This document shows, piece by piece, positions 10,602 through 31,672 of a stretch of DNA of 64,000 nucleotides. This stretch comes from Candidatus Gorgyraea atricola (lineage in GTDB: Bacteria; Omnitrophota; Gorgyraeia; Gorgyraeales; Gorgyraeaceae). The position numbers were made by a program, and so were the translations under genes. Location: the NCBI GenBank assembly GCA_030765235.1, contig JAVCCW010000028.1, positions 24,744-88,743 on the forward strand, given 5' to 3'. The notes under the pieces were generated by a model. That model saw nothing but the letters and a program-made list of their open reading frames with translations, did not search any database and was not told the DNA's origin. How positions within the stretch are numbered: position 1 is the stretch's first letter; each line of letters starts with the position of its first letter.

Positions 10602-10634
10602 ATTGTACGGTTTTATACTGTTTTTATTGATTTG

Positions 10635-10663: not shown

Positions 10664-10701
10664 ATAATGAACCAAATATCTTTACAAAAAAAGGAGTTTT
10701 T

Positions 10702-13700
10702 TTGTTTACTTCCCGCAAAATTTTATTATCTTTTTCATTACTAGCAGTATTTGTTTTTCTCGCCTGTGCCAGCCCTTCTGTAGCATATAGCATTCCTACT
10801 GCTGAAATTTCTTCAATCGAGTTTGACAGTCCTACTAGACATCTTGTTGTTAATGGTTCTGCCTATGGTTCAGATTTCAAGAGCTATAAAATAGAATATG
10901 GCACAGGTGAGTCACCTACATATTGGACGAGTCTTAAGGTTTCAGAAGACGAGGTTCCAGACGGTGTTTTGGCAACAGGCACAGTATTCTGTATCAAAGA
11001 AGGATATTATACAGTCAAGCTCACTGTAGAAGATACTAATGGAGATATTGCAGAAGATAGAGATAGATTTTATTACTCACCTTATTTTATTTTAAAGTGG
11101 AGTAAAAACAGTTGGTCTGTTTCAATGTTTTCTTTAATGATAGGTCTATTGACTGTAACTGACGATGAGGGCGAGACAGCTACAGCTCCACTGAAAATTC
11201 TTGTCAATGCTGTAGATGAGGATGAAGATGAGGAGGAAGACGAAGATAAAGATGATGTTAAGGGTGAGAAAAAGCCAATAAAAGATCTGCAGTATGTCCC
11301 AGGTGAGTTTATAGTAAAGTTTAAGCCTGAGGCGATTCAAAAGGCTGCATCTATAGATTCAGCAAAGCCTCTCTTCAAAAAGAAAAAAGGTAAGATGCCT
11401 GATACTTATATTCTTAAGATAGATCCGTCAGAGGATGTATTGGCTGCATGTAGCAGGTATAAGGCAAGGGATGATGTTGTATATGCTGAGCCAAATTATA
11501 TTTACACCATAGATGGTGAGCCAGATCCTATGCTCTCACAGCAGTGGTCTCATAAAAAGACACAGGCAGATCTTGGCTGGGATATTGAAACAGGCAACAA
11601 GGATATTGTAATAGCTATTATAGATACAGGTGTAGAGTATACTCACCCAGACCTAGCAGAAAACATCTGGACAAATGAAGGCGAAATCCCTAATAACGGA
11701 GAAGATGATGATAGGAATGGGTATGTAGATGATTACTATGGCTATGATTTTGCTAACCTTAATAATGACCCTAAAGATGAGAATAACCATGGCACGCACT
11801 GTGCAGGTATTGCGGGTGCAGTAGGGAATAATGGCATAGGCGTGGCAGGCGTGTGTCATTCTTGCTCAATAATGTCTTTAAGGGTAAGCTTAAAGCCCCC
11901 TAATGGCAATGTAGTGCGCACTATTTCACAAAGTGATCTTTTAGCGGAAGCACTTAAATATGCTGCTGATAATGGCGCTCGTATTATCTCTATAAGTCTC
12001 AGAGGAGCCAACTCTCAGACAGTAAAAGACGCGATAACATATGCCTATCAAAAGGGATGTGTGATTGTAGCAGGCGCAGGCAACGGAAATTCCAGTAATA
12101 AATGTTATCCTGCGGCATTTGACAATGTAATCGCAGTAGCTGCTACTAATTTTAAAGATCAAAAAACAGAGATTTCAAACTATGGCAGCTGGATAGATGT
12201 TGCAGCCCCAGGCGAGAATATTTTATCAACTGTTCGTTCAGGTTATGGATCTTCTTCAGGTACCTCAATGGCTGCTCCATACGTAGCAGGTCTAGCAGGA
12301 CTTATACTTTCAAAAGATAGTTCACTTAGCAATAGTGAAGTTAAAAAGGTGATAGTAAGTAGCGTAGATGGCTGTGATTCTGATAAATATATAGGTACAG
12401 GCAGGGTCAATGTCTATGAGGCATTAAAGGATGAAGATGTCCCTTGCACAACAGAGATAACCTCGCCAGAGCATGATGATATAATAATTGAAGATGTGGA
12501 AGTTATAGGTACTGCTACAGGGGATTACACGCTTTATTATGGAAAGGGCACATATCCCTCCAGGTGGGAAGAATTTGACTTAGGCGAGAGTACCACAGAG
12601 GATGTTTTAGGTACATGGAATATATCAAATTTAACTGAAGGGACATATTCAATTAGACTAGCAGTTGAGGATGATGGCTCAGTAGTATGCGAGGATAAGG
12701 TGGTTGTAGAGGTAAGGGTAAGGGTGAATGATCGCGTGATTTACGTTGATAATTCTGCTAGCGGTGCAAATGATGGTACGTCCTGGCAGGATGCATATAC
12801 AACGATTAGCGCTGCCTTTGATGACTTATACTATGAATCAGGCGTTACTATAAAGGTAGCACAGGGTAGCAGTGCTTATGAAGAGGATTTCACCAATATC
12901 ACTAATGGGACAGATTCAGGAGTAAAGGATAATCATAATTCCTTAGTAGCAAAAGATGAGCATGCCCCAATAATAGCTTCTACTTTTACACTCAAGGATG
13001 TCAAATACTTTAAGATAAAAGGATTCAAATTTATCAACGCAGGCCTTGATATTATAGACGCTTCAAATATAAAGGTGGTAAACAATACAATAGACTCCAA
13101 TAGAGATTTTGGTATCTATTTACTGGATAGTGCTAATAATACTGTAAAGAATACCATTGTTATAAATGGTGAGGACGCAGGTATATGCGCAGAAGGGATC
13201 TCCTCAGTCTCGTCTTCGTATAATAATCTCTGGAATAATGGTGTGAATTACAAAGGCTGTTCAAAAGGTGAAGGAGATATCTCTAGCGACCCATTATTCG
13301 TAGATCTTGCATCAGGTGATTATCATCTCAGGTCTGATTCTCTATGTATAGATGCAGGGGATCCTAACGATCCGCTTGATAGTGCGGGTTCGCGAGTGGA
13401 TATAGGATGTTATACAGGGTATACACATCCAAGGGATCTCAAGAAACCTGTACTAGATGATGCGCAGCCTAAAGGCGCAACTGGCCTTGAGGTATATGAA
13501 GGTCAGGAGGTATTATTTAAGGTATATTCTTTTGATCCTAAAGGAAGGGCTATTACTTATTCGCTTCCCTATTCTTCAGATCCTGGCTTTATAGAAAATT
13601 CACAAGAAGAGCCAAAGAGTGGTATTTACACATGGCAGACAGATTATAATGATGCTGATGATGGCGGCGAGTACTATGTAACCATTAGGGCTACTGCAGA

Positions 13701-16700
13701 TGATGGCCGTTATGCAGAGGATATATTCAAGATAGTCGTAAATAATTTTGATCCAGAGAGGGAGCGCGTAATTTATGTTGATAATTCTGCTACTGGTGCA
13801 AATGATGGCACCTCATGGGAAAATGCATATACAACGATCACTGCAGCATTGAATGACTTGCACTATGAATCAGGTGTTACTATAAAAATTGCCAAAGGTA
13901 ATGGAGCTTATAAGGAGGATTTCAGCAGTGCCATAGATGATTCAGATTCTGGCACATATGAACAGCCAAATTATTTAGTAGCTAAACAAGGAGGCATGCC
14001 AACAATCGTTTCTTTAGTTGATGGCTTTAGCATTGATAATGCTAGATACATTACTATAGATGGATTGGGATTTATGGCTATTCCAGGTCATACAGGTTTG
14101 CCTGAAGTTGTAAGCATTAATGATTCTTCCAGGATTATATTTAAAAATAATGCAGTCGAGGCATTTGCAATAGATCTTAATGGTCTGGTTCTGGAGAATT
14201 GTTCAGATATAAGAGTAGAAGATAATAAGATGCTTGCGCTAGAAACCTCAATTTTGGCAAAAGATATTAAGAATAGCTTTATCAAGAGTAATCGTATAGA
14301 TTGCAGCAAGATTGGAATTTCTCTTGAGGGAGGTCTTGGTAATTCAGTCAATTATAACTTAGTTGTAAACAGTAGTAATGAAGGCATATCTATATCTTAT
14401 GGCGGCTTTTGTTCTATAGTAAATAACACCATAGACTCTTCAAGCTCTCCTTCTAGCCGTGATGGGATTATAGCCCGCGGCACGCTTAAGACCATTGTAA
14501 AAAATAACATAATAACCAATAATCAAGGAGCGGGAATAAGATTAGACGATGGCGCATCAATTAGATCTTCATATAACAATGTCTGGAATAATGGTGCGGA
14601 CTATAAGGGTTGTTCGCCAGGTACGGGAGCCATCTCTAGTGATCCATTGTTTGTTAATGTTTCGTCAAGGGATTATCATCTTCAGCCTAATTCTCCGTGT
14701 ATAGATGCAGGAGATCCTAATGACCCTCTTGATAGTGAACTTTCCAGAATAGATATAGGGTGTCACACAGGATATAGAGCTACAATAGTAAACCATGATC
14801 CTCAAGTCACAATAACTTCAATTTCTCCAAACCCAGCTTTGGTAGGCCAGCCTGTTAAGTTTAAGGCAGCAATAAGCGACCCTGATGGAGCTGGCGACTT
14901 GTTATACGACACATGGGACTATGGGAATGGTATAACTTCAATGTCGCAAGGAGGTTGTTCAGGAATCGGGGCAATGACCTATTTAAAGTCCGGGGATTAC
15001 ACAGTGACAGTCAAGGTGTATGATAAATCTGGTGGTACAGCAGAAGCCACAGATACTATAACTGTAAATACACCTCCTACGCGGCCGCCTGAGATTGAAT
15101 CCATACCTGATCAGGAGATGAGCGAGGGTGAAGAGCTTACAGTTAACATTAATACACTAGATATTCCTGACTACGAATTGTATGCTATGCATGTTGAAAA
15201 ACTGCCAGAATTTGCAGATGATATTATTTTAGATTATCATAATGGACCTAGGATAGTTACTGCTATTGTATTCAGGCCTGGCTTTGAGGACAGCGGCATA
15301 TACCCTGACATAACAGTAGTCTTGTCTATGGGAAAGTATCGCATAGAGGAGAAGTTTACATTAAAGGTACAAAACACTAACCGTAAGCCCAGAGTCACAA
15401 TAACCTCTATCTCTCCAAATCCAGCCTTGGTAGGCGAACTTGTTGAGTTTACAGCCCAGATAAGCGATCCAGACGGAGATAGTGACTTACTATGCGACGC
15501 ATGGGATTATGGAAATGACATAGCTTCAATGACGCAAGGGGGATGTAATGGGTCCGGAAGAATGACCTATTTAAAATCAGGAGACTACACAGTAACAGTG
15601 ACTGTGCGTGATAAATCTGGTGCTGCAGCAACAGATTCAGCAGTAGTTACTGTAAATAAAAGGCCTGACCGAGAACCCTCTAAGCCCATCCTCAAGAACG
15701 ATATAGCTAGTCTAACTGTAAATGAAGGAGAGAAGATGCAATTTAGACTCGCTTCAGCTGACCCGGACGGAGACAAAATAACCTACATAAAGGTAGAAGG
15801 ACCAGGCTCAATAGATGGCCTTACAGGTGTATTCACCTGGCAGACCGTCTATGCTGACAGCGGTACATACCCTCTAAGAGTGAAGGCCACATCCACCAGC
15901 CTGGAATCAGCGGAGGCAGAGTTTACTCTCACTGTCGAAAATACTAACCGTCCACCTGCTGCTGAAATCACTTTTGTTTCTGCAAGGAAGATTACTGTAG
16001 GAGAATCTGTTAACTTCGAGGCTAAGATCTATGATCCTGATGGTGACTCTGATATAAGCTATGTTATATGGAGATTCGGAGATGGTAAATCTTCAACAGG
16101 AGGCCTAAGTCAAAAAGACATTGCACATCGCTTTGATAAGCCAGGCAGTTATGAGGTAACTGTAGAAGTAGTTGATAAACAAGGTGTATCTGTAAAGGCC
16201 GGCGGTGTTACCATAACGGTAGAGGAACGGCTGCCCATAATTGGCGACGTGGATTCTGATGGTAAGGTACTGATGTATGATGCTTCTTTGGTTGCTCAGT
16301 ATGTTGAGGGTCTGATCAATTTTAACCCTACACAGATATACGCTGCTGATGTAACTCGCAATGGCCAGGTAACACACCTGGATGCTAATTTTATTGCAAT
16401 GTATGTAGTGGGAAAGATAGCTAAATTACCCGTAGAAAACCATGCCCCTATCTTTGCACAAATAGGCAATAAGACCGTCTTAAAAGGCTCTACCCTTAAC
16501 TTCACCATCGAAGCAACTGACCCTGATGGAAATAATCTCACTTACTCACTCAAGAATCCGCCAGATGGTGCAGCCTTAAAGGGTAATACCTTCTCATGGA
16601 CACCTGCTAGTACCCAGAAAGTCACCTTTGAAGTCACTGACGGTGAACTCTCTAGCTCGAAGACCATCATCATAACTGTACAAGATAAAAAACAGCCTCC

Positions 16701-16713
16701 TGCAATTGACTAA
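10702..16713 (+). CDS. giant secreted multidomain subtilisin-like (S8) serine protease with beta-helix, PKD/Ig-like and dockerin modules (2003 aa)
   Basis: TTG start with RBS. The signal peptide MFTSRKILLSFSLLAVFVFLACAS may be a lipobox. An acidic DEDEDEEEDEDKDD linker follows. An I9-like propeptide precedes the S8 catalytic triad (IAIIDTGV, NHGTHCAG, GTSMAAPYVAG). Two roughly 340-aa right-handed beta-helix modules are present (VIYVDNSA[ST]GANDGTSW...NNT repeats...DPLFV..DYHL..CIDAGDPNDPLDS). Three PKD-like domains carry DPDGD motifs. The dockerin repeats are GDVDSDGKV...DVTRNGQV. Ig-like domains lie at the C-terminus. Confidence 0.8.
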   Translation: MFTSRKILLSFSLLAVFVFLACASPSVAYSIPTAEISSIEFDSPTRHLVVNGSAYGSDFKSYKIEYGTGESPTYWTSLKVSEDEVPDGVLATGTVFCIKEGYYTVKLTVEDTNGDIAEDRDRFYYSPYFILKWSKNSWSVSMFSLMIGLLTVTDDEGETATAPLKILVNAVDEDEDEEEDEDKDDVKGEKKPIKDLQYVPGEFIVKFKPEAIQKAASIDSAKPLFKKKKGKMPDTYILKIDPSEDVLAACSRYKARDDVVYAEPNYIYTIDGEPDPMLSQQWSHKKTQADLGWDIETGNKDIVIAIIDTGVEYTHPDLAENIWTNEGEIPNNGEDDDRNGYVDDYYGYDFANLNNDPKDENNHGTHCAGIAGAVGNNGIGVAGVCHSCSIMSLRVSLKPPNGNVVRTISQSDLLAEALKYAADNGARIISISLRGANSQTVKDAITYAYQKGCVIVAGAGNGNSSNKCYPAAFDNVIAVAATNFKDQKTEISNYGSWIDVAAPGENILSTVRSGYGSSSGTSMAAPYVAGLAGLILSKDSSLSNSEVKKVIVSSVDGCDSDKYIGTGRVNVYEALKDEDVPCTTEITSPEHDDIIIEDVEVIGTATGDYTLYYGKGTYPSRWEEFDLGESTTEDVLGTWNISNLTEGTYSIRLAVEDDGSVVCEDKVVVEVRVRVNDRVIYVDNSASGANDGTSWQDAYTTISAAFDDLYYESGVTIKVAQGSSAYEEDFTNITNGTDSGVKDNHNSLVAKDEHAPIIASTFTLKDVKYFKIKGFKFINAGLDIIDASNIKVVNNTIDSNRDFGIYLLDSANNTVKNTIVINGEDAGICAEGISSVSSSYNNLWNNGVNYKGCSKGEGDISSDPLFVDLASGDYHLRSDSLCIDAGDPNDPLDSAGSRVDIGCYTGYTHPRDLKKPVLDDAQPKGATGLEVYEGQEVLFKVYSFDPKGRAITYSLPYSSDPGFIENSQEEPKSGIYTWQTDYNDADDGGEYYVTIRATADDGRYAEDIFKIVVNNFDPERERVIYVDNSATGANDGTSWENAYTTITAALNDLHYESGVTIKIAKGNGAYKEDFSSAIDDSDSGTYEQPNYLVAKQGGMPTIVSLVDGFSIDNARYITIDGLGFMAIPGHTGLPEVVSINDSSRIIFKNNAVEAFAIDLNGLVLENCSDIRVEDNKMLALETSILAKDIKNSFIKSNRIDCSKIGISLEGGLGNSVNYNLVVNSSNEGISISYGGFCSIVNNTIDSSSSPSSRDGIIARGTLKTIVKNNIITNNQGAGIRLDDGASIRSSYNNVWNNGADYKGCSPGTGAISSDPLFVNVSSRDYHLQPNSPCIDAGDPNDPLDSELSRIDIGCHTGYRATIVNHDPQVTITSISPNPALVGQPVKFKAAISDPDGAGDLLYDTWDYGNGITSMSQGGCSGIGAMTYLKSGDYTVTVKVYDKSGGTAEATDTITVNTPPTRPPEIESIPDQEMSEGEELTVNINTLDIPDYELYAMHVEKLPEFADDIILDYHNGPRIVTAIVFRPGFEDSGIYPDITVVLSMGKYRIEEKFTLKVQNTNRKPRVTITSISPNPALVGELVEFTAQISDPDGDSDLLCDAWDYGNDIASMTQGGCNGSGRMTYLKSGDYTVTVTVRDKSGAAATDSAVVTVNKRPDREPSKPILKNDIASLTVNEGEKMQFRLASADPDGDKITYIKVEGPGSIDGLTGVFTWQTVYADSGTYPLRVKATSTSLESAEAEFTLTVENTNRPPAAEITFVSARKITVGESVNFEAKIYDPDGDSDISYVIWRFGDGKSSTGGLSQKDIAHRFDKPGSYEVTVEVVDKQGVSVKAGGVTITVEERLPIIGDVDSDGKVLMYDASLVAQYVEGLINFNPTQIYAADVTRNGQVTHLDANFIAMYVVGKIAKLPVENHAPIFAQIGNKTVLKGSTLNFTIEATDPDGNNLTYSLKNPPDGAALKGNTFSWTPASTQKVTFEVTDGELSSSKTIIITVQDKKQPPAID
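12736..14775 (+). repeat. internal tandem duplication of an about 1-kb beta-helix module within the giant gene
   Basis: gtgatttacgttgataattctgctagcggtgcaaatgatggtacg at 12736 matches gtaatttatgttgataattctgctactggtgcaaatgatggcacc at 13768. Both modules end with ...CIDAGDPNDPLDS..R[IV]DIGC[YH]TGY. Confidence 0.75.
14803..15658 (+). repeat. two roughly 80%-identical PKD-domain repeats (14803-15070 and 15391-15658) within the giant gene
   Basis: [QR]VTITSISPNPALVG...ISDPDG..DLL[YC]D.WDYGN.I.SM[ST]QGGC.G.G.MTYLKSGDYTVTV.V.DKSG repeated. Confidence 0.75.
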
Positions 16714-16939: not shown

Positions 16940-16968
16940 TTGACTATTTTAAAGGCATAGTGTATATT
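16940..16968 (+). promoter_or_regulatory. candidate promoter for the AAA/DUF4143 ATPase gene
   Basis: TTGACT (16940-16945), a 17-nt spacer, then TATATT (16963-16968). This implies a very short leader before the ATG at 16980. Confidence 0.35.
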
Positions 16969-16979
16969 TATATTAGATC

Positions 16980-18194: not shown

Positions 18195-18215
18195 GATCCT
18201 GCATGCACACACAAG

Positions 18216-19916: not shown

Positions 19917-21101
19917 ATGCCTAAATTTATTTACAAAGCGAAAAAAGGGCCGAAAGAGATTATAGAGGGAAAGATCGAGGCTGAATCAGAGGCCCAGGCT
20001 GTAAAGCAGCTCATGCAGCAGGGCTATTATCCTATATGGGTTAAAGAGACCTCGACCTTAGCCTCACAAAAAAGAAGACCTGTAAAAACAAAGGACCTTG
20101 CGATTTTTACAAGGCAGCTCTCAGAGCTCTTGGATTCAGGCCTGGCCCTGTACGAGGCATTAAATATAATTGAAAATCAAATAGAGCTGCCGGGGTTAAA
20201 AGAGATCATAAGAGGTATTAGGGAAAAGGTAAGGGATGGCAATACCTTTTCTGAATCTTTGAAAGACTACCCAGGTGTTTTTTCAGAATTATATGTAAAT
20301 CTGGTTCGCTCAGGTGAGGCAGGGAGCATGCTTAGGGACGTGCTCAATAATATCGCGGATTTTCTGGAAAAAGAAGAGGATGTAAAGTCCAGGGTATTGG
20401 CTGCACTGGCATATCCAATGCTGATGCTGATCGTAGGTGCTGGTACAATATTTATTCTAACAGGATTTGTTATTCCAAAATTGGCCAATATGTTTATTGA
20501 GATGGGCGAGGTCTTACCTCTTCCCACAAGGATGCTTATTGGATTTAGTGATTTTATAAGGAGTTACTGGATATTATTAGCCATTTTTATAGGTGGCGCG
20601 ATATTTTTTGTTGCAAGGAGTAAATCCAAGGGGGCTATAGACAGGTTCAAATTAAAATTGCCTATTATTGGAGCGCTAGTAAGGGATAGTGAGCTTGCTA
20701 GATTCTCACGCACGCTTTCAATGCTTCTTAAAAATGGCGTGGCGATTCTTTCTGCATTAAAGATTACCTCTGATGTAATCGAAAATGAGGTTGTAAAAGC
20801 CGAGGCGCTTAGGATCTATAATGATGTTAGAGAAGGTTCATCGCTTGCAGCTGCGATAAAAAAGAATACCAGCTTTCCCCAGTTTATCGTAAATATGGCA
20901 ACGATAGGAGAAGAGGGTGGGATGCTGGATAAGACCTTACTTAAGGCTGCAAAGAGTTACGAGCTCGAGAGCGACAGAAAGATCAAGATACTCTCATCTC
21001 TTTTAGAGCCAGCTATAATATTGATCATGGGTGTGGTAGTAGGTTTTATCGTAATATCAATGCTTTTGCCAGTATTTCAGATATCGTTGACTGCACATTG
21101 A
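19917..21101 (+). CDS. gspF: type II secretion inner-membrane platform protein (GspF/PilC family)
   Basis: 394 aa. Duplicated T2SSF domains and three TM segments. The start codon abuts the gspE stop. Confidence 0.85.
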   Translation: MPKFIYKAKKGPKEIIEGKIEAESEAQAVKQLMQQGYYPIWVKETSTLASQKRRPVKTKDLAIFTRQLSELLDSGLALYEALNIIENQIELPGLKEIIRGIREKVRDGNTFSESLKDYPGVFSELYVNLVRSGEAGSMLRDVLNNIADFLEKEEDVKSRVLAALAYPMLMLIVGAGTIFILTGFVIPKLANMFIEMGEVLPLPTRMLIGFSDFIRSYWILLAIFIGGAIFFVARSKSKGAIDRFKLKLPIIGALVRDSELARFSRTLSMLLKNGVAILSALKITSDVIENEVVKAEALRIYNDVREGSSLAAAIKKNTSFPQFIVNMATIGEEGGMLDKTLLKAAKSYELESDRKIKILSSLLEPAIILIMGVVVGFIVISMLLPVFQISLTAH

Positions 21102-21102
21102 C

Positions 21103-21134
21103 AAATCGCGGAACTTCCGCGTAGTTCAGCGATT
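21103..21134. repeat. minimal copy of the aatcgcggaac...gttcagcgatt palindromic element, directly after the gspF stop
   Basis: aaatcgcggaacttccgcgtagttcagcgatt. The termini are shared with the element at 62511-62628, and the left terminus with 5761-5848. Confidence 0.65.
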
Positions 21135-21150
21135 ACTATAGGAGGTAATT

Positions 21151-21549
21151 ATGAGTAGTCAAAAAGGTTTTACATTGATAGAACTGATGCTTGTCGTAAT
21201 AATCATAGGGGTGCTTGCGTCATTAGTAGTGCCCAGGCTTGTGGGCCGTTCAGAAGAGGCAAGGATTGCCGCTGCAAAGGCAGATATAAATGCCAATATT
21301 TCAGTGGCGCTTGATCTATATGAGCTGGACAATGGAAAATACCCGTCTGACCTGAATGCCTTAAAGGCAAAATCAGGCTCGGACGCAAACTGGAAAGGCC
21401 CATATCTTAAAAGAAGCGTAAAAGATCCATGGGGAAATTCTTATGTATACAGAAGCCCAGGGGATCATGACACTGATTACGATCTTTATTCTTATGGCCC
21501 TGACGCTGCAGAGGGCGGAGGCGATGATATTACGAACTGGGAAGAATAA
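21151..21549 (+). CDS. gspG: type II secretion major pseudopilin GspG
   Basis: 132 aa. Prepilin leader MSSQKG|FTLIELMLVVIIIGVLASLVVPRL. The GspG-specific motif DPWGNSYVY is present. Confidence 0.85.
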   Translation: MSSQKGFTLIELMLVVIIIGVLASLVVPRLVGRSEEARIAAAKADINANISVALDLYELDNGKYPSDLNALKAKSGSDANWKGPYLKRSVKDPWGNSYVYRSPGDHDTDYDLYSYGPDAAEGGGDDITNWEE

Positions 21550-21784
21550 AAAAGGGATTTTATTGCTGGAAGTATTAGTCAGCACTACGATTCTTTCAGT
21601 TTGTTTTATATTTATAATAAGTTCTTTTACGAGATCTATAAGGGCGATAGACCTCTCAGGGGATTATTTCAGGCTAGGCCTGGTTCTTGAGCAGGAATTA
21701 TACGAGGCCCTTGATTGCGAATTAAAACAAGGTCTTCCGGATTTTGACAAAATTTATGAAGAAAAAAGGGTTTACCCTGATTGA
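21524..21784 (+). CDS. minor pseudopilin (GspH/GspI-like)
   Basis: Start chosen at MILRTGKNKKG|ILLLEVLVSTTIL, a prepilin-like leader plus hydrophobic helix. Overlaps the gspG 3' end by 26 nt. The ORF track's upstream extension is rejected. Confidence 0.5.
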   Translation: MILRTGKNKKGILLLEVLVSTTILSVCFIFIISSFTRSIRAIDLSGDYFRLGLVLEQELYEALDCELKQGLPDFDKIYEEKRVYPD

Positions 21785-22325
21785 GCTTATAATTAGTGTA
21801 ACAATATTTAGCATAGTAATCGTTTCAGTTTATGGCGTGTTTTATATGGGTTTAAAGACATGGAGGCGCGCTCAAGGAGAAAAATCCCTGCAAGAGATAC
21901 GCATGGCATTTTTAAAGATGGAAAAGGAACTGAAAAATACATTCTTCTTTTCTGACACCAAATTTAAAGGCACGTCAAAAGACATGTCTTTTCCTTTAGT
22001 TGTCTCAGATAAAGTTTATACAATTACCTATAGCGTGAACGAAAATGAAGATAGCGGACTAAGTCAAATTCTGAGAACAAAAGACGAAGAAGAAAAAGAG
22101 ATATCGCCTCCAATGAAGTCTATTAAATTTCAATATGCTGCTATGGCCGAAGATATCGAATGGAAGGATAATTGGAATGAAGATGACCTTCCTTCTGGCA
22201 TAAGGATTTCTTTAGAGGATGAGGAGACTTGCCCCGTGCCTTTTGCAGATAGAGCAAAAAGCAAAAGGCATGGGGTTTACAGCAAGACCATTTTTCTTAA
22301 ACAGCCGGATTTTAAGATACAATGA
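21756..22325 (+). CDS. minor pseudopilin (GspJ-like)
   Basis: MKKKG|FTLIELIISVTIFSIVIVSVYGVF prepilin N-terminus. An in-frame TTG at 21744 is an alternative start. About 190 aa, consistent with GspJ. Confidence 0.55.
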   Translation: MKKKGFTLIELIISVTIFSIVIVSVYGVFYMGLKTWRRAQGEKSLQEIRMAFLKMEKELKNTFFFSDTKFKGTSKDMSFPLVVSDKVYTITYSVNENEDSGLSQILRTKDEEEKEISPPMKSIKFQYAAMAEDIEWKDNWNEDDLPSGIRISLEDEETCPVPFADRAKSKRHGVYSKTIFLKQPDFKIQ

Positions 22326-23110
22326 AGAAAAAAGGAAGCATCTTGATATTTACATTGTGGGTGTTAATTATTTTAGCCATCCTTAGTGTGATTATTTCTC
22401 GTCGGGCATCTACTGATGTAAGGCTGGCAAAATACGAGGCTGATAGCATAAAAGGCACTTATTTTGCAAAGGCAGGTGTCATGAAGATGCTTGTAGAACT
22501 TACTAAAGATAAAAATGGGTACGACAGCTTAGATGAGGACTGGAATAGAGGTAAGGATAATCCAAAGGAATTGACATTGAAAAATGATACAGTACTCTAT
22601 GGCGCATCTGATGAAGCAGCCAGATTAAATCTGAATCATTGCACAATAGATAACCTTAAGAACCTGGGACTTGAAGATGATATTGCTAATAATATATTAA
22701 AGTATAGGACGGATCATAATAAGGACTTTGAGTTTATGGAAGAGTTGTTTCTGGTAGAGGCTATGACGCGAGAGGTGTATAATACAATTAAGGATCTAGT
22801 TACGATTTATAGAGGAGATGAGGTCAAGGTAAACATAAATACTGCATCTTCAGATGTACTGATGGCAGTTGTGGGCGATCCAGTTTTAGTACAGGCGATA
22901 GTAGATTATAGAAATAACGATGATATGTTTACAAATACTAGTGATATCAGCATGATACAAGGATTGGATCCAGCTATGTTTAACTGGGAGTCTAATATCT
23001 TTCGCATATGGGCAGAGGCTGTTCTGGCAGATGATACTGATGCAACAAAAACTGCTGAAGCTATAGTCGATAGGACATCAGGAAAGATCTATCATTGGAG
23101 GGAAGATTGA
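22322..23110 (+). CDS. gspK: GspK-like minor pseudopilin
   Basis: 262 aa. MKKKGSILIFTLWVLIILAILSV N-terminal TM helix without the processing Gly/Phe, as in GspK. Gene order is G-H/I-J-K. Confidence 0.6.
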   Translation: MKKKGSILIFTLWVLIILAILSVIISRRASTDVRLAKYEADSIKGTYFAKAGVMKMLVELTKDKNGYDSLDEDWNRGKDNPKELTLKNDTVLYGASDEAARLNLNHCTIDNLKNLGLEDDIANNILKYRTDHNKDFEFMEELFLVEAMTREVYNTIKDLVTIYRGDEVKVNINTASSDVLMAVVGDPVLVQAIVDYRNNDDMFTNTSDISMIQGLDPAMFNWESNIFRIWAEAVLADDTDATKTAEAIVDRTSGKIYHWRED

Positions 23111-24225
23111 TAATCATACCGCGGCATCAAGTCTTTGTTAAGTTCGTGGACGTACCATCTCTAGACGAATCTGAGATAGCGAAGATGGCAGAATTTCAGA
23201 TCGTGAAGGAGATCCCGCATCCAAAAGAAGATTTGATAATCAGCTATAGAAATCTTGACTCCCATAGAGAAGGTTTCTCATCACTCATGCTAACAGTTGT
23301 TACCAGAGATGTGATAGAGGAAAAGATTGACGAGGCTGCTCATGTAGATAGCATAAGACTATATAGTGAGCTATTATATCTATTCCTGTTAAAAGAGAAT
23401 GTGGTAAGCCAGGATAAGGTAAGTCTTATTATTCATGTTAGAGAAGAAGACTCAGAGATAATGATAATAGATCGCTCACGGCTGATATTTTCCAGAGGTT
23501 TTAAGGATAGGCACGCATTTTTAGGTGAGATAGAGCGTTCAATTTTAGCCTATAAAAGAGAAAAGGCAAATCCTGAGATAGAAGATATAATTATAGTACG
23601 CCATTCAGGTGTGAATATCGACGATAAAATAGAAAAGATAAAGGCACAGTTTACGATTCCTGTAAGGTTTCATGAATATAGCCAGGATTTGAGTCTGCTT
23701 GATCTGGGGCCTCAGATCGACCTTATGCCAAAGGAGATCAGTCATAAAAGACGTGGTTTAGTAAAGAGGCGCGAGTCCATAGTTACATATTCTCTTGTAG
23801 GAGTGGTTATTGTATTATTTTCTATTTTACTTTATTCAAAGATTCACCAGAAAAATAAAATTATAGGCGCGATTTCTACAAAGGTAGAAGAAGTGGACGC
23901 AAGGATAGAAGGTTTGGACGAGATCCTTAAAAAGACCGAGGCTGTAAAGGATCATTTAGAAAAGGGTAGTTTTATTATAAAGGTTTTAGAGGATTTTTAT
24001 CTAACAGTCCCCCAAGATATATCAATTTCAGGCTTAGATTATGATGGAAAGGATAATATTTTCTATAAAGGCAATTCAAAGGCCATGGCTACTCTCCTAA
24101 ATTACGTAAAAAGACTGGAGAATTCCAAGTATTTCAGCAAGGTGGAAGTTAAATATGCTACAAAGAAAAAGGTAAAGGGAGAAGAGATAGTAGATTTTAA
24201 TCTAAGGTGTCAATTAAAGCCATGA
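23095..24225 (+). CDS. GspL-like (cytoplasmic actin-like domain + TM + periplasmic domain) assembly protein
   Basis: 376 aa. A single central TM helix (VTYSLVGVVIVLFSILLYSKI) separates an about 240-aa N-terminal domain from an about 115-aa C-terminal domain, the GspL/PilM-PilN topology. The TTG start is uncertain. Confidence 0.5.
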   Translation: MEGRLIIIPRHQVFVKFVDVPSLDESEIAKMAEFQIVKEIPHPKEDLIISYRNLDSHREGFSSLMLTVVTRDVIEEKIDEAAHVDSIRLYSELLYLFLLKENVVSQDKVSLIIHVREEDSEIMIIDRSRLIFSRGFKDRHAFLGEIERSILAYKREKANPEIEDIIIVRHSGVNIDDKIEKIKAQFTIPVRFHEYSQDLSLLDLGPQIDLMPKEISHKRRGLVKRRESIVTYSLVGVVIVLFSILLYSKIHQKNKIIGAISTKVEEVDARIEGLDEILKKTEAVKDHLEKGSFIIKVLEDFYLTVPQDISISGLDYDGKDNIFYKGNSKAMATLLNYVKRLENSKYFSKVEVKYATKKKVKGEEIVDFNLRCQLKP

Positions 24226-24722
24226 ATATTTCCAAGCGAGAAAAATATATATCTATTATTGCTACTGGAGTTGTCGTATTGGCGCTGGCGTATAATTTTT
24301 TAATAGATCCACTTTTCAAAAAATGGCATAATTTTAATAATGATATAATAAAAAATGAAATTGCCTTAAAGAAAGGCTTGAAATTGCTGGAGAATAGAAA
24401 TGATATTATCAAAGAGTATAATAGCTATGCATCCACTACCAGGACGCTTTCAAGGATTTTGAGTTACATAGAAAAACATGCCATTTCAACAGGTGTAAAA
24501 ACAGCCAATATAAAGCCAAGGCCAGTTGTTGAAAAAGGCTATTATAAGGAATATGTCATTGAGCTGCAGGTAGAAGGCACATTTTCCGCTATCAACAAGT
24601 TCGCATCTAAGATCATAGAACCCCCTTTGCTAATCACCATAAAAAAATTCGACCTAAGAACCCCCACAGACACTCCATCCACCCTAAAAGGTACCCTAAT
24701 TCTCTCCAAACCCCTAATTTAA
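24222..24722 (+). CDS. GspM/PilO-like bitopic membrane protein
   Basis: ATGA overlap with the gspL-like stop. N-terminal TM helix ISIIATGVVVLALAYNFLI, then a periplasmic domain. Assigned from its position after gspL. Confidence 0.45.
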   Translation: MNISKREKYISIIATGVVVLALAYNFLIDPLFKKWHNFNNDIIKNEIALKKGLKLLENRNDIIKEYNSYASTTRTLSRILSYIEKHAISTGVKTANIKPRPVVEKGYYKEYVIELQVEGTFSAINKFASKIIEPPLLITIKKFDLRTPTDTPSTLKGTLILSKPLI

Positions 24723-24778
24723 CTTTACACTTAACCAAGGCTTAAGTGTAAAGTAGGCCAGGTTTAAACCTGGCCTAC
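24722..24778. repeat. two adjacent perfect palindromes after gspM: actttacacttaa-ccaaggc-ttaagtgtaaagt and gtaggccaggtttaaacctggcctac
   Basis: The second is the 26-nt core of the 8207-8246 palindrome. Confidence 0.75.
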
Positions 24779-24798
24779 AGAGAAGTTAGGAGTTGACC

Positions 24799-24872
24799 TT
24801 GACAATAAGGAAATCGTGGGGCATACTTACTCTCTATATGGAGAGTGAACTCTCACTCTCTACTTGGAGAGC
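24799..24872 (+). promoter_or_regulatory. candidate promoter (TTGACA-17-CATACT) plus two tandem CTCTC-N6-GAGAG inverted-repeat boxes upstream of the MerR-like gene
   Basis: ttgaca at 24799-24804. Box 1 is tctctatatggagag, and box 2 is tctctacttggagag, 10 nt further. Both precede the ATG at 24874. Confidence 0.4.
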
Positions 24873-24873
24873 T

Positions 24874-25110
24874 ATGAATAAGATATATTTGATTAAAGAT
24901 CTGGCAAGGCTAAGTGGACACACAGTGCACACTGTGAAGTATTACCTTAATATAGGTGTCATAAAGGAGATTGGCAGGAGTCCAGAGACTAACTTTAGAT
25001 ACTTTGATGATGTAGTGCTTGAGAGATTGAAAAAGGTGAGGGATTTGCGCAGACAGAATAAAGGCCTTGCAGAGATAAAGGAGTTACTCGGGTCAGATGT
25101 CGTATTATAA
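24874..25110 (+). CDS. small MerR-family HTH transcriptional regulator embedded in the T2SS locus
   Basis: 78 aa. IKDLARLSGHTVHTVKYYLNIGVI...FRYFDDVVLERLKKVRDLRRQNKGLAEIKELL has the MerR HTH and coiled-coil pattern. There is no effector domain. Confidence 0.6.
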   Translation: MNKIYLIKDLARLSGHTVHTVKYYLNIGVIKEIGRSPETNFRYFDDVVLERLKKVRDLRRQNKGLAEIKELLGSDVVL

Positions 25111-25924
25111 TATTCTCAATCTCAATAAAGAGCCATTTTCAACAAGTCCAGATCCTTATTTTTTATATCCATCCACGTCTCATCAGCAGGCACTGCAGAG
25201 GCTTGAGATCGCGATCAGGCTTAAGAGAGGGCTGAGCGTGATTTTAGGAGACGTGGGGATCGGGAAGACCACGCTTGCCCGCGCGCTTGTCCAGAATCTA
25301 AATCAGGATCACACTATAGTTACTCACATGATCTTTGATCCTACCTATGATTCAGAGTTTCAGTTTGTTGTTTACCTGGCAAAACTTTTTGGCATAAGAC
25401 CAAATTTTCGTTCAGCCCTTGATTATAAAGAGGCCATAGAGAGGTTTTTATTTAAAAAATGCGTGGATGAGGAAAATATTGTCGTGCTTATTATTGACGA
25501 GGCTCAGAAATTGAGCGCATCCAGCCTGGAGATATTGCGCACGCTCCTGAACTACGAAACTAATGAATACAAACTTCTCCAGCTCGTGATTATAGGTCAA
25601 ACAGAGCTTCTGCCTAAATTAAAAAGGATAAGAAATTTTTCAGACAGGGTTTCGCTGAAGTATATGATCAACCCGTTTGATATAAATGAGACCAGGGCCA
25701 TGATACAGTTTAGACTGAAGCAGGCTGGTTATAATTCAGGAAAAGGTCTTTTTAGTAATAATGCAATGGATATGATCTACCAGTATACACAGGGCTATCC
25801 GCGGCAGATAGCAAATATCTGTCATCTCGCATTAGAAGAATTTTTAATGCAAGAGAGGTCCGTGGTGGATACTGATTTAATAGACGAGGTAATAGAACGC
25901 GATAGAAAGGTGGATCTGGATTAA
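25097..25924 (+). CDS. gspA: GspA/ExeA-like AAA ATPase (secretin-assembly factor), cytoplasmic ATPase part only
   Basis: 275 aa. ...QQALQRLEIAIRLKRGLSVILGDVGIGKTTLARAL carries Walker A, and VLIIDEAQ is Walker B. The ExeA family signature is present. Confidence 0.7.
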   Translation: MSYYNILNLNKEPFSTSPDPYFLYPSTSHQQALQRLEIAIRLKRGLSVILGDVGIGKTTLARALVQNLNQDHTIVTHMIFDPTYDSEFQFVVYLAKLFGIRPNFRSALDYKEAIERFLFKKCVDEENIVVLIIDEAQKLSASSLEILRTLLNYETNEYKLLQLVIIGQTELLPKLKRIRNFSDRVSLKYMINPFDINETRAMIQFRLKQAGYNSGKGLFSNNAMDMIYQYTQGYPRQIANICHLALEEFLMQERSVVDTDLIDEVIERDRKVDLD

Positions 25925-26409
25925 TGGCTGGTATGACTTCAGAAGGGAAACTTCTTAATCTCATAAAAGATGCGCAGAAAAAACGTAAGCTCAGGAAGGA
26001 TTTAAAGGTGTTTACGAAAATAAACATTGTCTTGATCGTTCTTATATTGGTTATACTTATTGTGTTTTTAGTGGATTTTCTCACCCCTGACCAAGAGAGG
26101 TCTAAGCTCATGGTAGAGCTGCCAAAGGAAGATGGAGCAGTTTTGCCTCTAGTAGAGGACGTGGATATAGAGGAAGAGATAGTGATTGAAGAAAAATCTC
26201 TTGCCTCAAAAGAGGAATTAGTAAAGGACTTGGCTGTGCTGGGCATCATCACAGGTGATAGCGACCAGGTTATAATAGAAGACAAGAGTGCAGGAAAGAC
26301 CTTTTTTCTTTACAAAGACGATAGTTTCGGAGATTTTAAGATTATCGAAATAAAAGATAATGGCGTGACCTTAGATTATAAAGGTGAAAAAATAGAATTG
26401 AATATGTAA
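25924..26409 (+). CDS. bitopic membrane protein, GspB/GspC-like partner of GspA
   Basis: 161 aa. Basic cytoplasmic N-terminus, then a TM helix (INIVLIVLILVILIVFLV), an acidic periplasmic linker and a small beta-rich C-domain. TAATG overlap with gspA. Homology is not firmly established. Confidence 0.4.
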   Translation: MAGMTSEGKLLNLIKDAQKKRKLRKDLKVFTKINIVLIVLILVILIVFLVDFLTPDQERSKLMVELPKEDGAVLPLVEDVDIEEEIVIEEKSLASKEELVKDLAVLGIITGDSDQVIIEDKSAGKTFFLYKDDSFGDFKIIEIKDNGVTLDYKGEKIELNM

Positions 26410-26424
26410 AAGGGGAGGTTTCCG

Positions 26425-28386
26425 ATGATAAAAAGAGTTATTGTATCTATAGTTATATTTTCGATATCTATTTTTTCTGCAGTGCCGATGGTCTTGCCGC
26501 AGTATGAAGATCCAGAATTAATATCGCTGGATCTTAAAGGTATGGAGATACGCGATGTTCTTAAGATCCTTTCGCAGAAGAGTGGGCTTAACATGGTAGC
26601 TGATAAGGATGTGAAAGGAACAGTATCGGTTTACGTGAAGGATGTGGATGTAATGGATGCCCTGGATATAGTAGTTTCCACAAATGACCTTGCTTATGAA
26701 GAGAAAGGCAGCCTTATCAGGGTCATGACTGCCAGGAAATACGAAAAGATGAATGGCGCCAGGTTTAAAGACAGGACCAAGACAGAAATAGTTAAGCTTA
26801 ATTATGCCAAGGCCTCCACTGTCGCAGTGACCTTGACAAAGATGAAAACAAAGCTAGGCAAGGTCATTGCGGATGATGCCTCGAACACATTAGTCTTAAT
26901 AGACAATTCTAAAAACATTGAAAGAATGAAGCAGGCTATTTTAGAAATAGATATCCTGCTGGTTACTGAGATTTTCTCTCTTGATTATGCAAAGGCAGAT
27001 TCCATAAAAGAGAAGTTAGAAAAGATGCTTTCCAAGGATATGGGGACTATACGATTTGATGAAAGGACAAACAAGGTAGTGGTTAAAGACACCCAGGAAA
27101 AGATCAATGAGATAAAGAAGGTGGTAGAGGCATTTGATGAGAAGACGCGAGAAGTGCTCATAGATGCAAAGATAATACAGGTGACACTCTCGGATAAACA
27201 TAGCTATGGAATAGATTGGGATAGCATTGCTACGCTGGGAAACATAACAATAGAGGCGACTACACATCTTACTACCAGCTTGGCAGGCACTACTCCGAAT
27301 GTATTGACTATAGCCAAGAAAGGTGGCACTCATTTAAATGTGTTAAGACTTCTTGAGACATTTGGCAAGACTAATGTCCTGTCGCGCCCGAGAATTACTG
27401 TTGCTGACAGGGAAGAGGCAAAAATCCTGGTTGGCGCCAAAGAGGTGTATGTGACGAGTGAAGTGACAACCACATCAGGAGGTACGTATCATACGACAGA
27501 TAATGTCCAGTTCGTTGATGTTGGTGTGACATTAGGCGTGACACCTGAGATAAATAGCGACGGTTATGTTAGAATGAAGATAAAGCCAGAAGTGTCTAAC
27601 ACTGATGCTACAAAGACAGTCATGCTGACAAATCCCGATGGATCAACCAGGACAGTTGTCCCTTATGTTACTACGTCAGAGGCAGAGACAACAGTGCTGA
27701 TCAAAGACAATACCACACTTATATTGGGTGGCCTGATGAAGGACACAGTTACAGAATATAATGACAAAGTGCCTATTCTTGGAGACATTCCTATTTTGGG
27801 GAAACTGTTTTCCACAAAAGGAAAGAGCAAAGAAAAAACAGAACTCGTAATATTTATCACACCTCATATCATAGACCCTGGTAAATCAACAAAAGAAGCA
27901 GAGTTTTATGCTAAAGAGTGGAAAAAGAAGACAGAAGACGCGAAGATAGGGAAATCAGAAAAGCCAGTTAAGAAAGAGAAAAAATCTGCCAAAGTTAAAG
28001 CAAAACGAAAACCAGAACCTAAGAAGAAAAAAGAATGGACACCTGTTTTTAGCAACAAAAAACCTGAAAAGGAAAAGGTGGTAAAACAGGAAAAGAAGGA
28101 AGTGGTTAAAACACCCTATGAGTCATACTACCTTGCTATAAGAAAAGAGATAATTGGTGCAGCCCAGAGGCAGGATATGGAAGGGTTTACAGGAGATGTT
28201 GAACTGCAATTCACGCTGGACAGAGATGGCTTTTTAACAAAAGGCCCTATTGTCCTGAATAAGCCTGATTTGAAACTTGTGCGAGCAGCTGTAAATTGCG
28301 TAAAGCTTACTTCGCCATTTTTTCCTTTTCCAAAGAGCTTAGACAAGGAAGAGGCAGAATTTTATATAATAGTACGGTATGAATGA
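26425..28386 (+). CDS. gspD: T2SS secretin GspD with C-terminal Lys-rich linker and TonB-C-like domain
   Basis: 653 aa. Signal peptide, N0/N1 domains, and the secretin signature VPILGDIPILGKLFSTKGKSKEKTELVIFITPHII. Then a KKEKKSAKVKAKRKPEPKKKKEW low-complexity linker and a YESYYLAIRKEIIGAAQRQDMEGFTGDVELQFTLDRDGFL... domain resembling TonB_C. Confidence 0.85.
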   Translation: MIKRVIVSIVIFSISIFSAVPMVLPQYEDPELISLDLKGMEIRDVLKILSQKSGLNMVADKDVKGTVSVYVKDVDVMDALDIVVSTNDLAYEEKGSLIRVMTARKYEKMNGARFKDRTKTEIVKLNYAKASTVAVTLTKMKTKLGKVIADDASNTLVLIDNSKNIERMKQAILEIDILLVTEIFSLDYAKADSIKEKLEKMLSKDMGTIRFDERTNKVVVKDTQEKINEIKKVVEAFDEKTREVLIDAKIIQVTLSDKHSYGIDWDSIATLGNITIEATTHLTTSLAGTTPNVLTIAKKGGTHLNVLRLLETFGKTNVLSRPRITVADREEAKILVGAKEVYVTSEVTTTSGGTYHTTDNVQFVDVGVTLGVTPEINSDGYVRMKIKPEVSNTDATKTVMLTNPDGSTRTVVPYVTTSEAETTVLIKDNTTLILGGLMKDTVTEYNDKVPILGDIPILGKLFSTKGKSKEKTELVIFITPHIIDPGKSTKEAEFYAKEWKKKTEDAKIGKSEKPVKKEKKSAKVKAKRKPEPKKKKEWTPVFSNKKPEKEKVVKQEKKEVVKTPYESYYLAIRKEIIGAAQRQDMEGFTGDVELQFTLDRDGFLTKGPIVLNKPDLKLVRAAVNCVKLTSPFFPFPKSLDKEEAEFYIIVRYE

Positions 28387-28394
28387 GATTATCC

Positions 28395-28422
28395 TTGACG
28401 CATAGGAAATAATATATAGAAT
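28395..28422 (+). promoter_or_regulatory. candidate promoter for the acd-etfBA operon
   Basis: TTGACG (28395-28400), a 16-nt spacer, then TAGAAT (28417-28422). An AGGAGG RBS precedes the ATG at 28455. Confidence 0.4.
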
Positions 28423-28454
28423 ATAAGAAATATGTCTAAAATAAGGAGGAGATA

Positions 28455-30463: not shown

Positions 30464-31672
30464 ATGTCTATCAGGGTTATCAATGAAAAATGTACGGGTT
30501 GTAAGCTTTGCATAAAGGCGTGTCCTTTTGCAGCAATTGAAGTGAAGGATAAAAAGGCTGTAATAGATCTGGACAAATGCAATCTGTGCGGTGCGTGCAT
30601 AGAATCATGCAAGTTTGACGCGATCGTACTTACCAAGATAAGCCCATCAGATATAGATTTTCCAAAAAAGATAGAACAGCATAAAAACGTGTGGGTGTTT
30701 TGTGAACAGAAGAATAGCGTTATCCAGAGCGTGGCATACGAGCTTTTAGGAAAAGGCCGGGAGCTTGCTGACGCGCTTGGCGTAGAGCTTTGCGGGGTTT
30801 TGCTGGGCGAGGCCATGAAAGAACAGGCGCAGGACATTATTCACAGGGGAGCTAATAAGGTGTATCTTGTAGATTCGCCAAAACTCAAACATTACCAGAG
30901 TGAGCCCTACTCAAAGACGCTTATCAAATTAATAAAGGAATACAAGCCAGAGATAGTGCTTTGCGGTGCGACCTCCATAGGCCGTTCATTGATATCGCGC
31001 GTGGCAATAGGGATCCATGCAGGACTTACTGCAGATTGTACAGGACTGGATATAGATAAAAAAGAAAAATTGCTTTTACAGACAAGGCCTGCGTTTGGCG
31101 GTAATATTATGGCCACGATCATCTGCCCGAATCACAGGCCTCAGATGGCGACTGTGCGGCATAAGGTGATGAAGGAGGCTGAGCCTGATAATCGACATAA
31201 AGGAAAGATCATAGAAAATAGTTATGACGATGATACCTATTTTTCACGTACAAAACTGCTAGATGTGGTGGAGGAAATAGAAGAGACCGTAAACCTCACA
31301 GAGGCAGACATCATTGTCTCAGGTGGCAGGGGCCTGCAGAAGCCAGAGAATTTCAGTATCATAGAGGATCTGGCCAAGGTCCTGGGCGGCGCAGTTGGTG
31401 CTTCCCGCGCGTCAGTAGACGCAGGATGGAAAAGTTACTCGCATCAGGTGGGACAGACAGGAAAGACTGTGTGTCCAAAGATCTATATTGCATGTGGCAT
31501 CTCAGGCCAGATACAGCATCTTGTAGGCATGCAATCGTCAGATGTAATAGTGGCGATAAACAAAGATCCACACGCGCCTATTTTCAGCGTAGCTACTTAC
31601 AGCATAGTAGGCGATTTATTTGAGGTCGTGCCAGAGCTGACAAAGAAGTTTAAAGAAGTTTTAAAGAAATAA
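30464..31672 (+). CDS. etfA: electron transfer flavoprotein alpha subunit with N-terminal 2x[4Fe-4S] ferredoxin domain
   Basis: 402 aa. CTGCKLCIKACP and CNLCGACIESC cysteine motifs sit in the first about 60 aa. An EtfA FAD-binding domain follows, ending SDVIVAINKDPHAPIF. Confidence 0.85.
   Translation: MSIRVINEKCTGCKLCIKACPFAAIEVKDKKAVIDLDKCNLCGACIESCKFDAIVLTKISPSDIDFPKKIEQHKNVWVFCEQKNSVIQSVAYELLGKGRELADALGVELCGVLLGEAMKEQAQDIIHRGANKVYLVDSPKLKHYQSEPYSKTLIKLIKEYKPEIVLCGATSIGRSLISRVAIGIHAGLTADCTGLDIDKKEKLLLQTRPAFGGNIMATIICPNHRPQMATVRHKVMKEAEPDNRHKGKIIENSYDDDTYFSRTKLLDVVEEIEETVNLTEADIIVSGGRGLQKPENFSIIEDLAKVLGGAVGASRASVDAGWKSYSHQVGQTGKTVCPKIYIACGISGQIQHLVGMQSSDVIVAINKDPHAPIFSVATYSIVGDLFEVVPELTKKFKEVLKK

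Follow-up and report, generated by a model that had tools for sequence, protein, structure and literature searches.

We analysed a stretch of 64,000 nucleotides (the window) from the genome of ‘Candidatus Gorgyraea atricola’, a member of the Omnitrophota, and examined one gene within it that joins a secretin to a C-terminal domain of the TonB/TolA type. The gene encodes 653 amino acids (aa); position 28386 of the window is the last base of its stop codon and position 27895 corresponds to codon 491. The gene and the parts of its product, all on the forward strand, are as follows.

26425..28386, + strand: secretin-TonB_C fusion gene, 653 aa plus stop codon
26425..26496, + strand: signal peptide, residues 1 to ~24, without a lipobox cysteine and not an anchor of the TonB type
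26518..26754, + strand: N0 / STN domain, residues 32-110
26776..27135, + strand: two Secretin_N (N1/N2-type) domains, residues 118-237
27151..27876, + strand: secretin beta-barrel domain, residues 243-484, ending ...TELVIFITPHII
27892..27942, + strand: single amphipathic helix after the barrel, in an S-domain-like position, residues 490-506
27943..28113, + strand: disordered Lys/Glu/Pro-rich linker, residues 507-563
28030..28050, + strand: K-E-W-T-P-V-F motif within the linker, residues 536-542
28114..28383, + strand: TonB/TolA-type C-terminal domain, residues 564-653

An earlier reading of the sequence alone had proposed that the protein continues for about 160 aa past the secretin C-terminus, and this holds: the last strand of the barrel ends ...TELVIFITPHII (residues 472-483), and 163 aa more precede the stop codon. 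The protein contains, exactly as given, the linker and the domain that this reading quoted, the low-complexity linker piece KKEKKSAKVKAKRKPEPKKKKEW being residues 516-538.

Pfam recognises STN/N0, Secretin_N (twice), Secretin and TonB_C in the protein. The Secretin family (PF00263) scores 173.2 bits over residues 310-484 against a cut-off of 27.5, and Secretin_N scores 83.9 bits against 28.2 in two stretches, with which the secondary structure predicted by AlphaFold2 (AF2) is consistent. The N0 region lies just below the Pfam cut-offs (STN 25.8 versus 28.4 bits; GspD N0 24.3 versus 27), despite which residues 32-110 form a confident beta-alpha fold in the AF2 model. The full-length model also contains long beta-hairpins across residues 243-483 and, in the signal peptide, a helix at residues 2-19 followed by a low-confidence stretch at 21-28; residues 1-19 are the sole hydrophobic segment of the protein.

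The sequence-only reading had called the protein GspD. That it is a secretin stands, but the label ‘GspD’ is too specific because the NCBIfam cut-offs for GspD (TIGR02517; 258.3 versus 351.35 bits), PilQ (TIGR02515; 266.4 versus 284.35) and MshL (TIGR02519; 205.5 versus 250.2) are all missed. PilQ is still the best NCBIfam subfamily match, and some homologues are labelled MshL by the Joint Genome Institute (JGI). Judged by these profile scores, the protein is best assigned to an Omnitrophota-specific subfamily of type II secretion system (T2SS)/type IV pilus (T4P)-type secretins. Among solved secretins, XcpQ (5WLN, E 3e-40) and several PilQs come closest. Their alignments stop by residue ~513, and since none extends further, no solved secretin has the tail.

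The tail ends in a genuine TonB/TolA-type C-terminal domain, as confirmed by both profile and fold. For Pfam TonB_C (PF03544), whose gathering cut-off is 24.6 bits, the whole protein reaches 25.7 bits and the isolated tail 29.1-30.2 bits (E 6e-7 to 1e-6); the Pfam envelope (residues 584-652) is narrower than the structural domain (564-653). One AF2 model covers the tail (38 aligned sequences) and another the full protein (71 aligned sequences). Both are monomers and both agree. The pLDDT (score in the predicted local distance difference test) exceeds 90 across the final ~92 residues of the tail model, and residues 564-652 are predicted with pLDDT 89-97 as an alpha-beta-beta-alpha-beta fold (alpha1 564-581, beta1 590-599, beta2 604-610, alpha2 616-629, beta3 643-652). 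When the model was compared with the PDB using Foldseek, the top match was the C-terminal domain (CTD) of Helicobacter pylori TonB (6SLY/5LW8; E 2e-4 to 6e-4, target TM-score 0.64-0.67), and ranks 1-25 were exclusively TonB, TolA, HasB or FusB C-terminal domains. By sequence alone, the single significant relative of the tail in the PDB is again H. pylori TonB. The above-threshold profile score, the model confidence and the uniformity of the 25 best fold matches together exclude chance resemblance, and the domain assignment of the sequence-only reading is borne out.

The same extension is present in related secretins. We assembled the best 120 homologues (group A; 50-100% identical, 612-737 aa) and a second, divergent set of 120 secretins (group B; ~40% identical), and found a TonB_C-type tail in all 240. 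In 239 of these proteins no more than 5 aa separate the end of the domain from the C-terminus, many of its positions are near-invariant among 120 homologues, and precomputed PF03544 or PF13103 calls already exist for many of them. The 100% identical NCBI protein (P0001) is named ‘secretin N-terminal domain-containing protein [Candidatus Gorgyraea atricola]’. At the level of DNA, we compared 33 loci from species-representative genomes; body and tail are encoded by a single uninterrupted open reading frame (ORF) in each of the 30 that are complete.

These surveys bear on whether the fusion might be an artefact, either two genes joined by a frameshift or assembly error, or a functionless relic. 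The idea was prompted solely by the metagenome-assembled source of the genome, and we found no evidence to support it. The sequence-only reading had raised a frameshift as a concern, which the 30 complete loci dispel. The 240 homologues with the same architecture come from many independent assemblies, residue conservation is strong, and the ratio of nonsynonymous to synonymous substitution rates (dN/dS) is 0.155 even where the domain is detached from a secretin. We consider this explanation vanishingly improbable, and a frameshift or assembly artefact was rejected.

Organism names on the homologues and contigs are all Omnitrophota or Omnitrophica, except for contigs automatically labelled ‘uncultured Planctomycetia’ that have the same synteny. 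A cluster look-up for distant fusions returned only two names, both Omnitrophota, and among the retrieved proteins and contigs no fusion was assigned to another phylum. The fusion appears to be a hallmark of the Omnitrophota. Its restriction to the phylum is likely but not proven because the genome scan used subfamily-specific patterns and most metagenomic proteins are unnamed.

A profile built from the tail was run on 1.84 billion representative proteins. A secretin body is present in 39 of the best 150 representative clusters, and the profile also finds proteins of TonB size (~200-240 aa, E 1e-12 to 1e-7). One protein, P0177, is a Tad/CpaC-type secretin with a TonB_C domain, which suggests a second origin of the fusion, on a Tad-type secretin. 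Another, P0126, consists of a secretin followed by three tandem TonB_C copies, and there are free metagenomic proteins made of 3-5 tandem TonB_C domains (the modular-reuse set P0139, P0145, P0161, P0188 and P0207). Together with the standalone genes described below, these architectures suggest a module that is semi-autonomous and modularly reused. In the Gorgyraea window itself we searched for a second secretin, a second TonB_C domain and a copy of a PDZ (GspC-like) gene, and found none.

Between the barrel and the domain lie a helix and a spacer. The helix is seen at residues 490-506 in the full-length model and at 10-24 in the numbering of the tail model, with moderate pLDDT. Its consensus, TEEAxxYxxxWxxK, is kept in group A and is absent from short-linker relatives such as P0189. 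Like GspD/XcpQ, the fusion protein has N0, Secretin_N repeats, a barrel, GspE/F/G/K-like operon genes and an accessory element after the barrel; unlike them, it has one helix, a disordered spacer and TonB_C in place of the ~40-60-aa S-domain. No pilotin family was recognised by Pfam among the operon ORFs scanned, pilotins being diverse.

The spacer has pLDDT ~40 over residues 510-559 and a proline content of ~7-8%, and the net charge over residues 484-563 is +16. The sequence-only reading saw in it a Lys-rich, low-complexity element of peptidoglycan- or periplasm-spanning character. The composition is correct for the Gorgyraea protein, but Lys-richness is confined to it and its close relatives, and linkers across the family range from ~10 to ~160 aa in length and from -14 to +27 in net charge. 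With length and charge so variable, we rejected the Lys-rich linker as a conserved functional element and regard it as a variable spacer with no conserved peptidoglycan-binding or periplasm-spanning element. The median length is ~96 aa in group A, and in group B linkers go down to ~10 aa (for example P0189). Linkers of ~10 aa keep the domain beside the barrel, so spanning the periplasm is not the general purpose of the linker.

A short motif does recur in the spacer. The standalone proteins and about half of group A have K-W-[TA]-P-[LIV]-[LF]-G 11-47 residues ahead of TonB_C; in the standalone proteins the KW[TA]P-type motif directly follows the signal peptide. Of 120 group A linkers, 54-76 contain a KW[TA]P-type motif, versus 0-1 of 119 group B linkers. 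We considered this motif as a universal self- or partner-binding strand and rejected it, since between about half and two-thirds of group A have it and virtually none of group B. AF2 did not dock it onto the domain; it is a low-confidence coil in both models.

The fusion secretin is the last gene of a type II secretion / type IV filament operon. The genes of this operon and a candidate cargo gene upstream, as assigned by Pfam, are as follows.

10702..16713, + strand: subtilase / beta-helix / PKD / Ig-like / dockerin protein, 2003 aa, candidate secreted cargo
18216-19916, + strand: GspE with an MshEN domain
19917-21101, + strand: GspF
21151-21549, + strand: GspG
21744-22325, + strand: minor pseudopilin
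22322-23110, + strand: GspK-like protein with HHH_3
23095-24225, + strand: PilN-domain protein
24207-24722, + strand: PilO
24793-25110, + strand: MerR-family regulator (MerR_1, 48 bits)
25097-25924, + strand: GspA/ExeA/MshM-like AAA ATPase, 275 aa (AAA_22, 73 bits; TIGR03015-like, 194 bits)
25924-26409, + strand: GspB/PilP-like candidate, 161 aa (weak T2SSB match, E 0.05, none at E<=0.01)

Wherever the contigs extend far enough among the 33 loci, the order GspK-like, PilN, PilO, MerR, GspA-like, GspB-like, secretin with tail, then ACAD and EtfBA recurs; FabF or GspE is seen upstream in a few. The GspB-like gene is immediately 5' of the secretin in the loci that reach it, and its product is predicted to have a short cytoplasmic N-terminus, a transmembrane segment at residues 25-43 and a beta-rich periplasmic C-terminus. 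The sequence-only reading had imagined the tail in a role normally filled by GspA/B or the pilotin. A replacement of GspA/B by the tail is not supported, as a GspA-like ATPase and a weak GspB-like protein are encoded directly 5' of the secretin, also across the loci extending there. The locus resembles ExeA/ExeB (GspA/GspB) in having an AAA_22 ATPase gene and a gene for a small single-pass membrane protein in this position. It differs in that the 275-aa ATPase, unlike ExeA, has no transmembrane segment and thus no periplasmic peptidoglycan-binding domain, being predicted as cytoplasmic only, and in that the GspB assignment is weak.

Several other features of the neighbourhood were recorded. 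The GspK-like minor pseudopilin matches HHH_3 (a ComEA-type helix-hairpin-helix) with 75 bits in two stretches, which may indicate DNA binding or may merely reflect the GspK alpha-domain. Within the operon, the MerR gene follows PilO and runs into the start of the gene for the GspA-like ATPase, a position that it keeps in related loci that extend that far. In at least 23 of the 33 loci (L007-L036; for example L011 7353-8333), the gene directly 3' of the secretin encodes ~320 aa that begin with a signal peptide and include a PDZ domain at the C-terminus, and its product is a possible GspC equivalent. The gene is missing from the Gorgyraea window, where 28387-28454 is merely intergenic, and from the closest relatives L005 and L006, and the protein is truncated in L014, L018 and L019. 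The trio of acyl-CoA dehydrogenase (ACAD), EtfB and EtfA genes 3' of the secretin is conserved across the phylum; the EtfA homologue (30464-31672, +) has an N-terminal ferredoxin-like segment with two CxxCxxC motifs, and its orthologue in L001 has Fer4-type Pfam matches. GC skew is positive in all 2-kb bins of positions 1-64000, and all ORFs of at least 150 aa that are not nested in longer + strand ORFs lie on the + strand except a GGDEF gene (35532-36653), which suggests that the window is one long leading-strand segment.

The tail also exists without the secretin. A tail-only search of a word-indexed protein database returned 5 short proteins and no fused secretins; it is uninformative on distribution and exposed standalone genes encoding a signal peptide and the tail (P0121-P0124). 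In L001 and L002, the slot between FabF and ACAD holds just a gene of 151-153 aa, whose product has a signal peptide, a KWTPLF motif, a short linker and a TonB_C domain. DNA alignment shows that positions 10,600-28,190 of the window (17.6 kb) correspond to ~350 bp in these relatives (L001 7908-8261; L002 ~7490-8263). With this block they lack the giant gene for the subtilase, all of the secretion cluster and the body of the secretin. Between two standalone orthologues, the domain has a dN/dS of 0.155 at a dS (synonymous divergence) of 0.93, a ratio indicating that the standalone genes are under purifying selection and are not decaying.

The standalone signal peptides are closer to secretin signal peptides than to other signal-like N-termini; for P0123, the median similarity to secretins is matched by just 1.7% of background sequences. 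Given these secretin-like signal peptides and the widespread clustered arrangement, we take the small genes to have arisen from the fusion by deletion. The opposite order, with the standalone genes as the ancestral state, was judged less likely, though this is unproven, as the cluster occupies the same slot between FabF and ACAD phylum-wide. Selection on the standalone form implies that the module has a function needing neither covalent attachment to a channel nor, at the locus, neighbouring secretion genes. Because the detached form survives, the domain probably has as its partner a general component of the envelope and not a protein that the operon alone encodes.

Survival outside the operon also bears on the idea that the leashed domains capture cargo, catching a TonB-box-like strand on secreted proteins such as the giant subtilase and delivering them to the channel. 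The 2003-aa protein, with Pfam matches to Peptidase_S8 (179 bits), right-handed Beta_helix, PKD and Dockerin_1, is a plausible secreted cargo whose gene adjoins the machine, T2SS-like loci in Omnitrophota reportedly have giant genes on their flanks (10.1101/2023.11.21.568195), and domains of this type bind exposed strands (PMC12204202). However, the standalone form persists at loci that have neither the cluster nor the giant gene, and short-linker members could not reach the vestibule. The C-terminus of a secretin, moreover, lies outside the barrel, away from the periplasmic entrance. No TonB-box motif was found in the cargo, no search aimed at one having been made. We consider cargo capture very unlikely.

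The presence of a TonB-type domain raises the question of energisation. The SHLS-type anchor is the motor-binding element of TonB and TolA and engages ExbB/ExbD (PMC12204202). We looked for an SHLS motif and a TonB-type N-terminal membrane anchor in the fusion protein and found neither. ExbB, ExbD, TolQR and TonB-dependent receptor domains were likewise absent from the window ORFs that the Pfam scans or the synteny matches covered. The inner-membrane energiser to which the sequence-only reading would have coupled the channel finds no counterpart among those ORFs. Although the domain has the same fold as TonB, TolA, HasB and FusB, detectable sequence homology and a charged, proline-containing spacer before it, in the fusion it sits on an outer-membrane channel and not on an inner-membrane helix engaging ExbBD or TolQR. 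Since it is attached there and lacks the SHLS motif, force could not be delivered as in TonB. By its sequence features the fusion secretin is not a TonB protein, and tethering to the outer membrane, not to an ExbBD or TolQR motor, argues against an energy transducer.

An ‘inverse TonB’ could nevertheless be imagined, in which the long leash reaches an inner-membrane platform or an ExbBD/TolQR/PocAB-like motor and mechanically couples gating or assembly. In a broader version of this outer-membrane-anchored arrangement, the domains would take an active hold of a strand motif, carried either by a motor or platform in the inner membrane or by giant secreted proteins, and the detached form would be a soluble regulator or competitor. 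If true, it would couple channel gating or cargo loading to the partner. We know of no secretin with coupling of this kind. The layout, a spacer followed by a C-terminal domain, is TonB-like, and a group A linker of median length could span the periplasm. TonB homologues are also needed for type IV pili: PocAB-TonB3 of Pseudomonas aeruginosa (PMC5285504) and TonB2 of Acinetobacter baumannii (PMC8811193) are tied to pilus assembly or localisation and transformation. Those proteins, however, act in trans as conventional inner-membrane TonB proteins with ExbBD-like partners, whereas the fusion protein has no membrane anchor or SHLS motif and no motor genes occur among the window ORFs scanned. The ~10-aa linkers of group B are too short for the periplasm, and linker length and charge are unconserved. 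The mechanical version thus appears distinctly unlikely, and we hold the broader one to be equally doubtful.

A further possibility is that the TonB_C domains anchor the channel by binding the cell wall itself, as AMIN, TsaP-LysM or the peptidoglycan-binding domain of ExeA do. The fusion secretin has no AMIN domain by Pfam, and neither it nor the GspA-like protein carries another peptidoglycan-binding module. Tandem arrays such as the three copies in P0126 and the 3-5 in free proteins are typical of wall-binding modules, and the secreted standalone form is retained by selection. AMIN-mediated anchoring of PilQ is documented (PMC5285504), and the fusion is comparable with the PilQ-AMIN and TsaP-LysM systems in being a secretin fixed in the envelope by an extra module or partner protein (PMC5285504, PMC8811193); PilN and PilO homologues are present in the fusion operon. 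The module of the fusion is C-terminal rather than N-terminal, and its fold is that of TonB/TolA rather than AMIN or LysM. Against wall binding, nothing computed here ties the TonB/TolA fold to peptidoglycan, whose binding by TonB C-terminal domains is reported in older work but did not turn up in the literature searched, and the solved complexes among the Foldseek matches are all protein-protein. We regard a direct peptidoglycan anchor as unlikely, though not implausible.

We instead favour, with a probability of about 0.45, the reading that the tail is an unenergised adaptor or anchor beside the channel. Secretins assemble as 12-15-mers whose C-termini emerge in the periplasm, against the outside of the barrel wall, at the site bound by S-domains and pilotins. 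A channel built from the fusion protein would therefore wear a crown of 12-15 TonB_C domains, tethered by leashes that vary in length. To our knowledge, domains of the TonB/TolA fold add a partner strand to their own sheet in every characterised case. For TonB and TolA, beta-strand addition is how the C-terminal domain takes hold of its target (PMC12204202), which is why our proposal is that a strand from some other component of the envelope is clamped by each domain. Such clamping would anchor, position or stabilise the channel with no energy input, and would fill the role played in other secretins by the S-domain and pilotin, AMIN domains, TsaP or the peptidoglycan-binding part of ExeA/GspA. 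The ~10-aa linkers of group B argue for a domain that sits beside the channel rather than spanning the periplasm, and the apparent lack of other anchoring modules (no AMIN domain; a GspA-like protein with no transmembrane or peptidoglycan-binding part) favours an adaptor.

A related design occurs in another non-Ton envelope machine, the Agl-Glt gliding apparatus of Myxococcus xanthus, where TonB-CTD-like domains terminate the long disordered periplasmic segments of GltG and GltJ; as structural connectors, these domains are predicted to dock onto a pillar protein in the periplasm (PMC11761067). Both Glt proteins have an inner-membrane anchor and associate with a TolQR-like motor, whereas the fusion is anchored via an outer-membrane secretin.

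Several points weigh against an adaptor or anchor beside the channel. The NCBIfam model for the TonB C-terminus (TIGR01352 tonB_Cterm) is missed, at 19.1-23.7 bits versus a cut-off of 27.1. The long linkers of group A (median ~96 aa) could reach the inner membrane and make a trans-periplasmic contact there. The placement of the C-terminus against the outside of the barrel is transferred from solved GspD, PilQ and InvG structures, and would apply to the fusion by analogy. The partner is hypothetical and the structural basis is a monomer prediction. The negative result for motors and receptors covers only those ORFs of the window that were scanned or syntenically matched. Finally, genomes with a standalone gene may carry another secretin elsewhere, which would weaken the case for a general partner.

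We found no description of a secretin-TonB fusion in the literature searched. The word ‘secretin’ is absent from the Omnitrophota genomics papers examined, and ‘TonB’ appears only in a 2026 preprint, as unexplained ‘TonB-domain content’ flanking giant genes. A survey from 2025 of how TonB/TolA evolved has no mention of secretins or of Omnitrophota (PMC12204202), and a literature search on Ton or Tol systems in Omnitrophota returned nothing. Channel and binding domain are each of a known kind, but we found no earlier discussion of the two combined and oriented in this way, their co-occurrence being already visible in automatic annotation. Full-length secretins P0003, P0015, P0026, P0080, P0289 and P0366 are publicly named ‘energy transducer TonB’ or ‘TonB family protein’. 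Because of such misleading names, counts of ‘TonB’ in Omnitrophota may partly count secretins.

Type II and type III secretion, type IV pili and filamentous-phage export all have secretins as their gates in the outer membrane, and the means by which these channels are positioned, stabilised and linked to the rest of the envelope differ by system, from pilotins and S-domains to AMIN, TsaP and ExeAB. A TonB/TolA-type domain at the secretin C-terminus would add one more solution to the problem of envelope tethering. Omnitrophota are ultra-small and probably host-dependent or predatory, and secretion and pilus loci beside giant genes are thought to be central to their lifestyle (PMC10066038; 10.1101/2023.11.21.568195). 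The relatives that retain the tail alone are a natural experiment and offer a direct handle on the partner of the domain.

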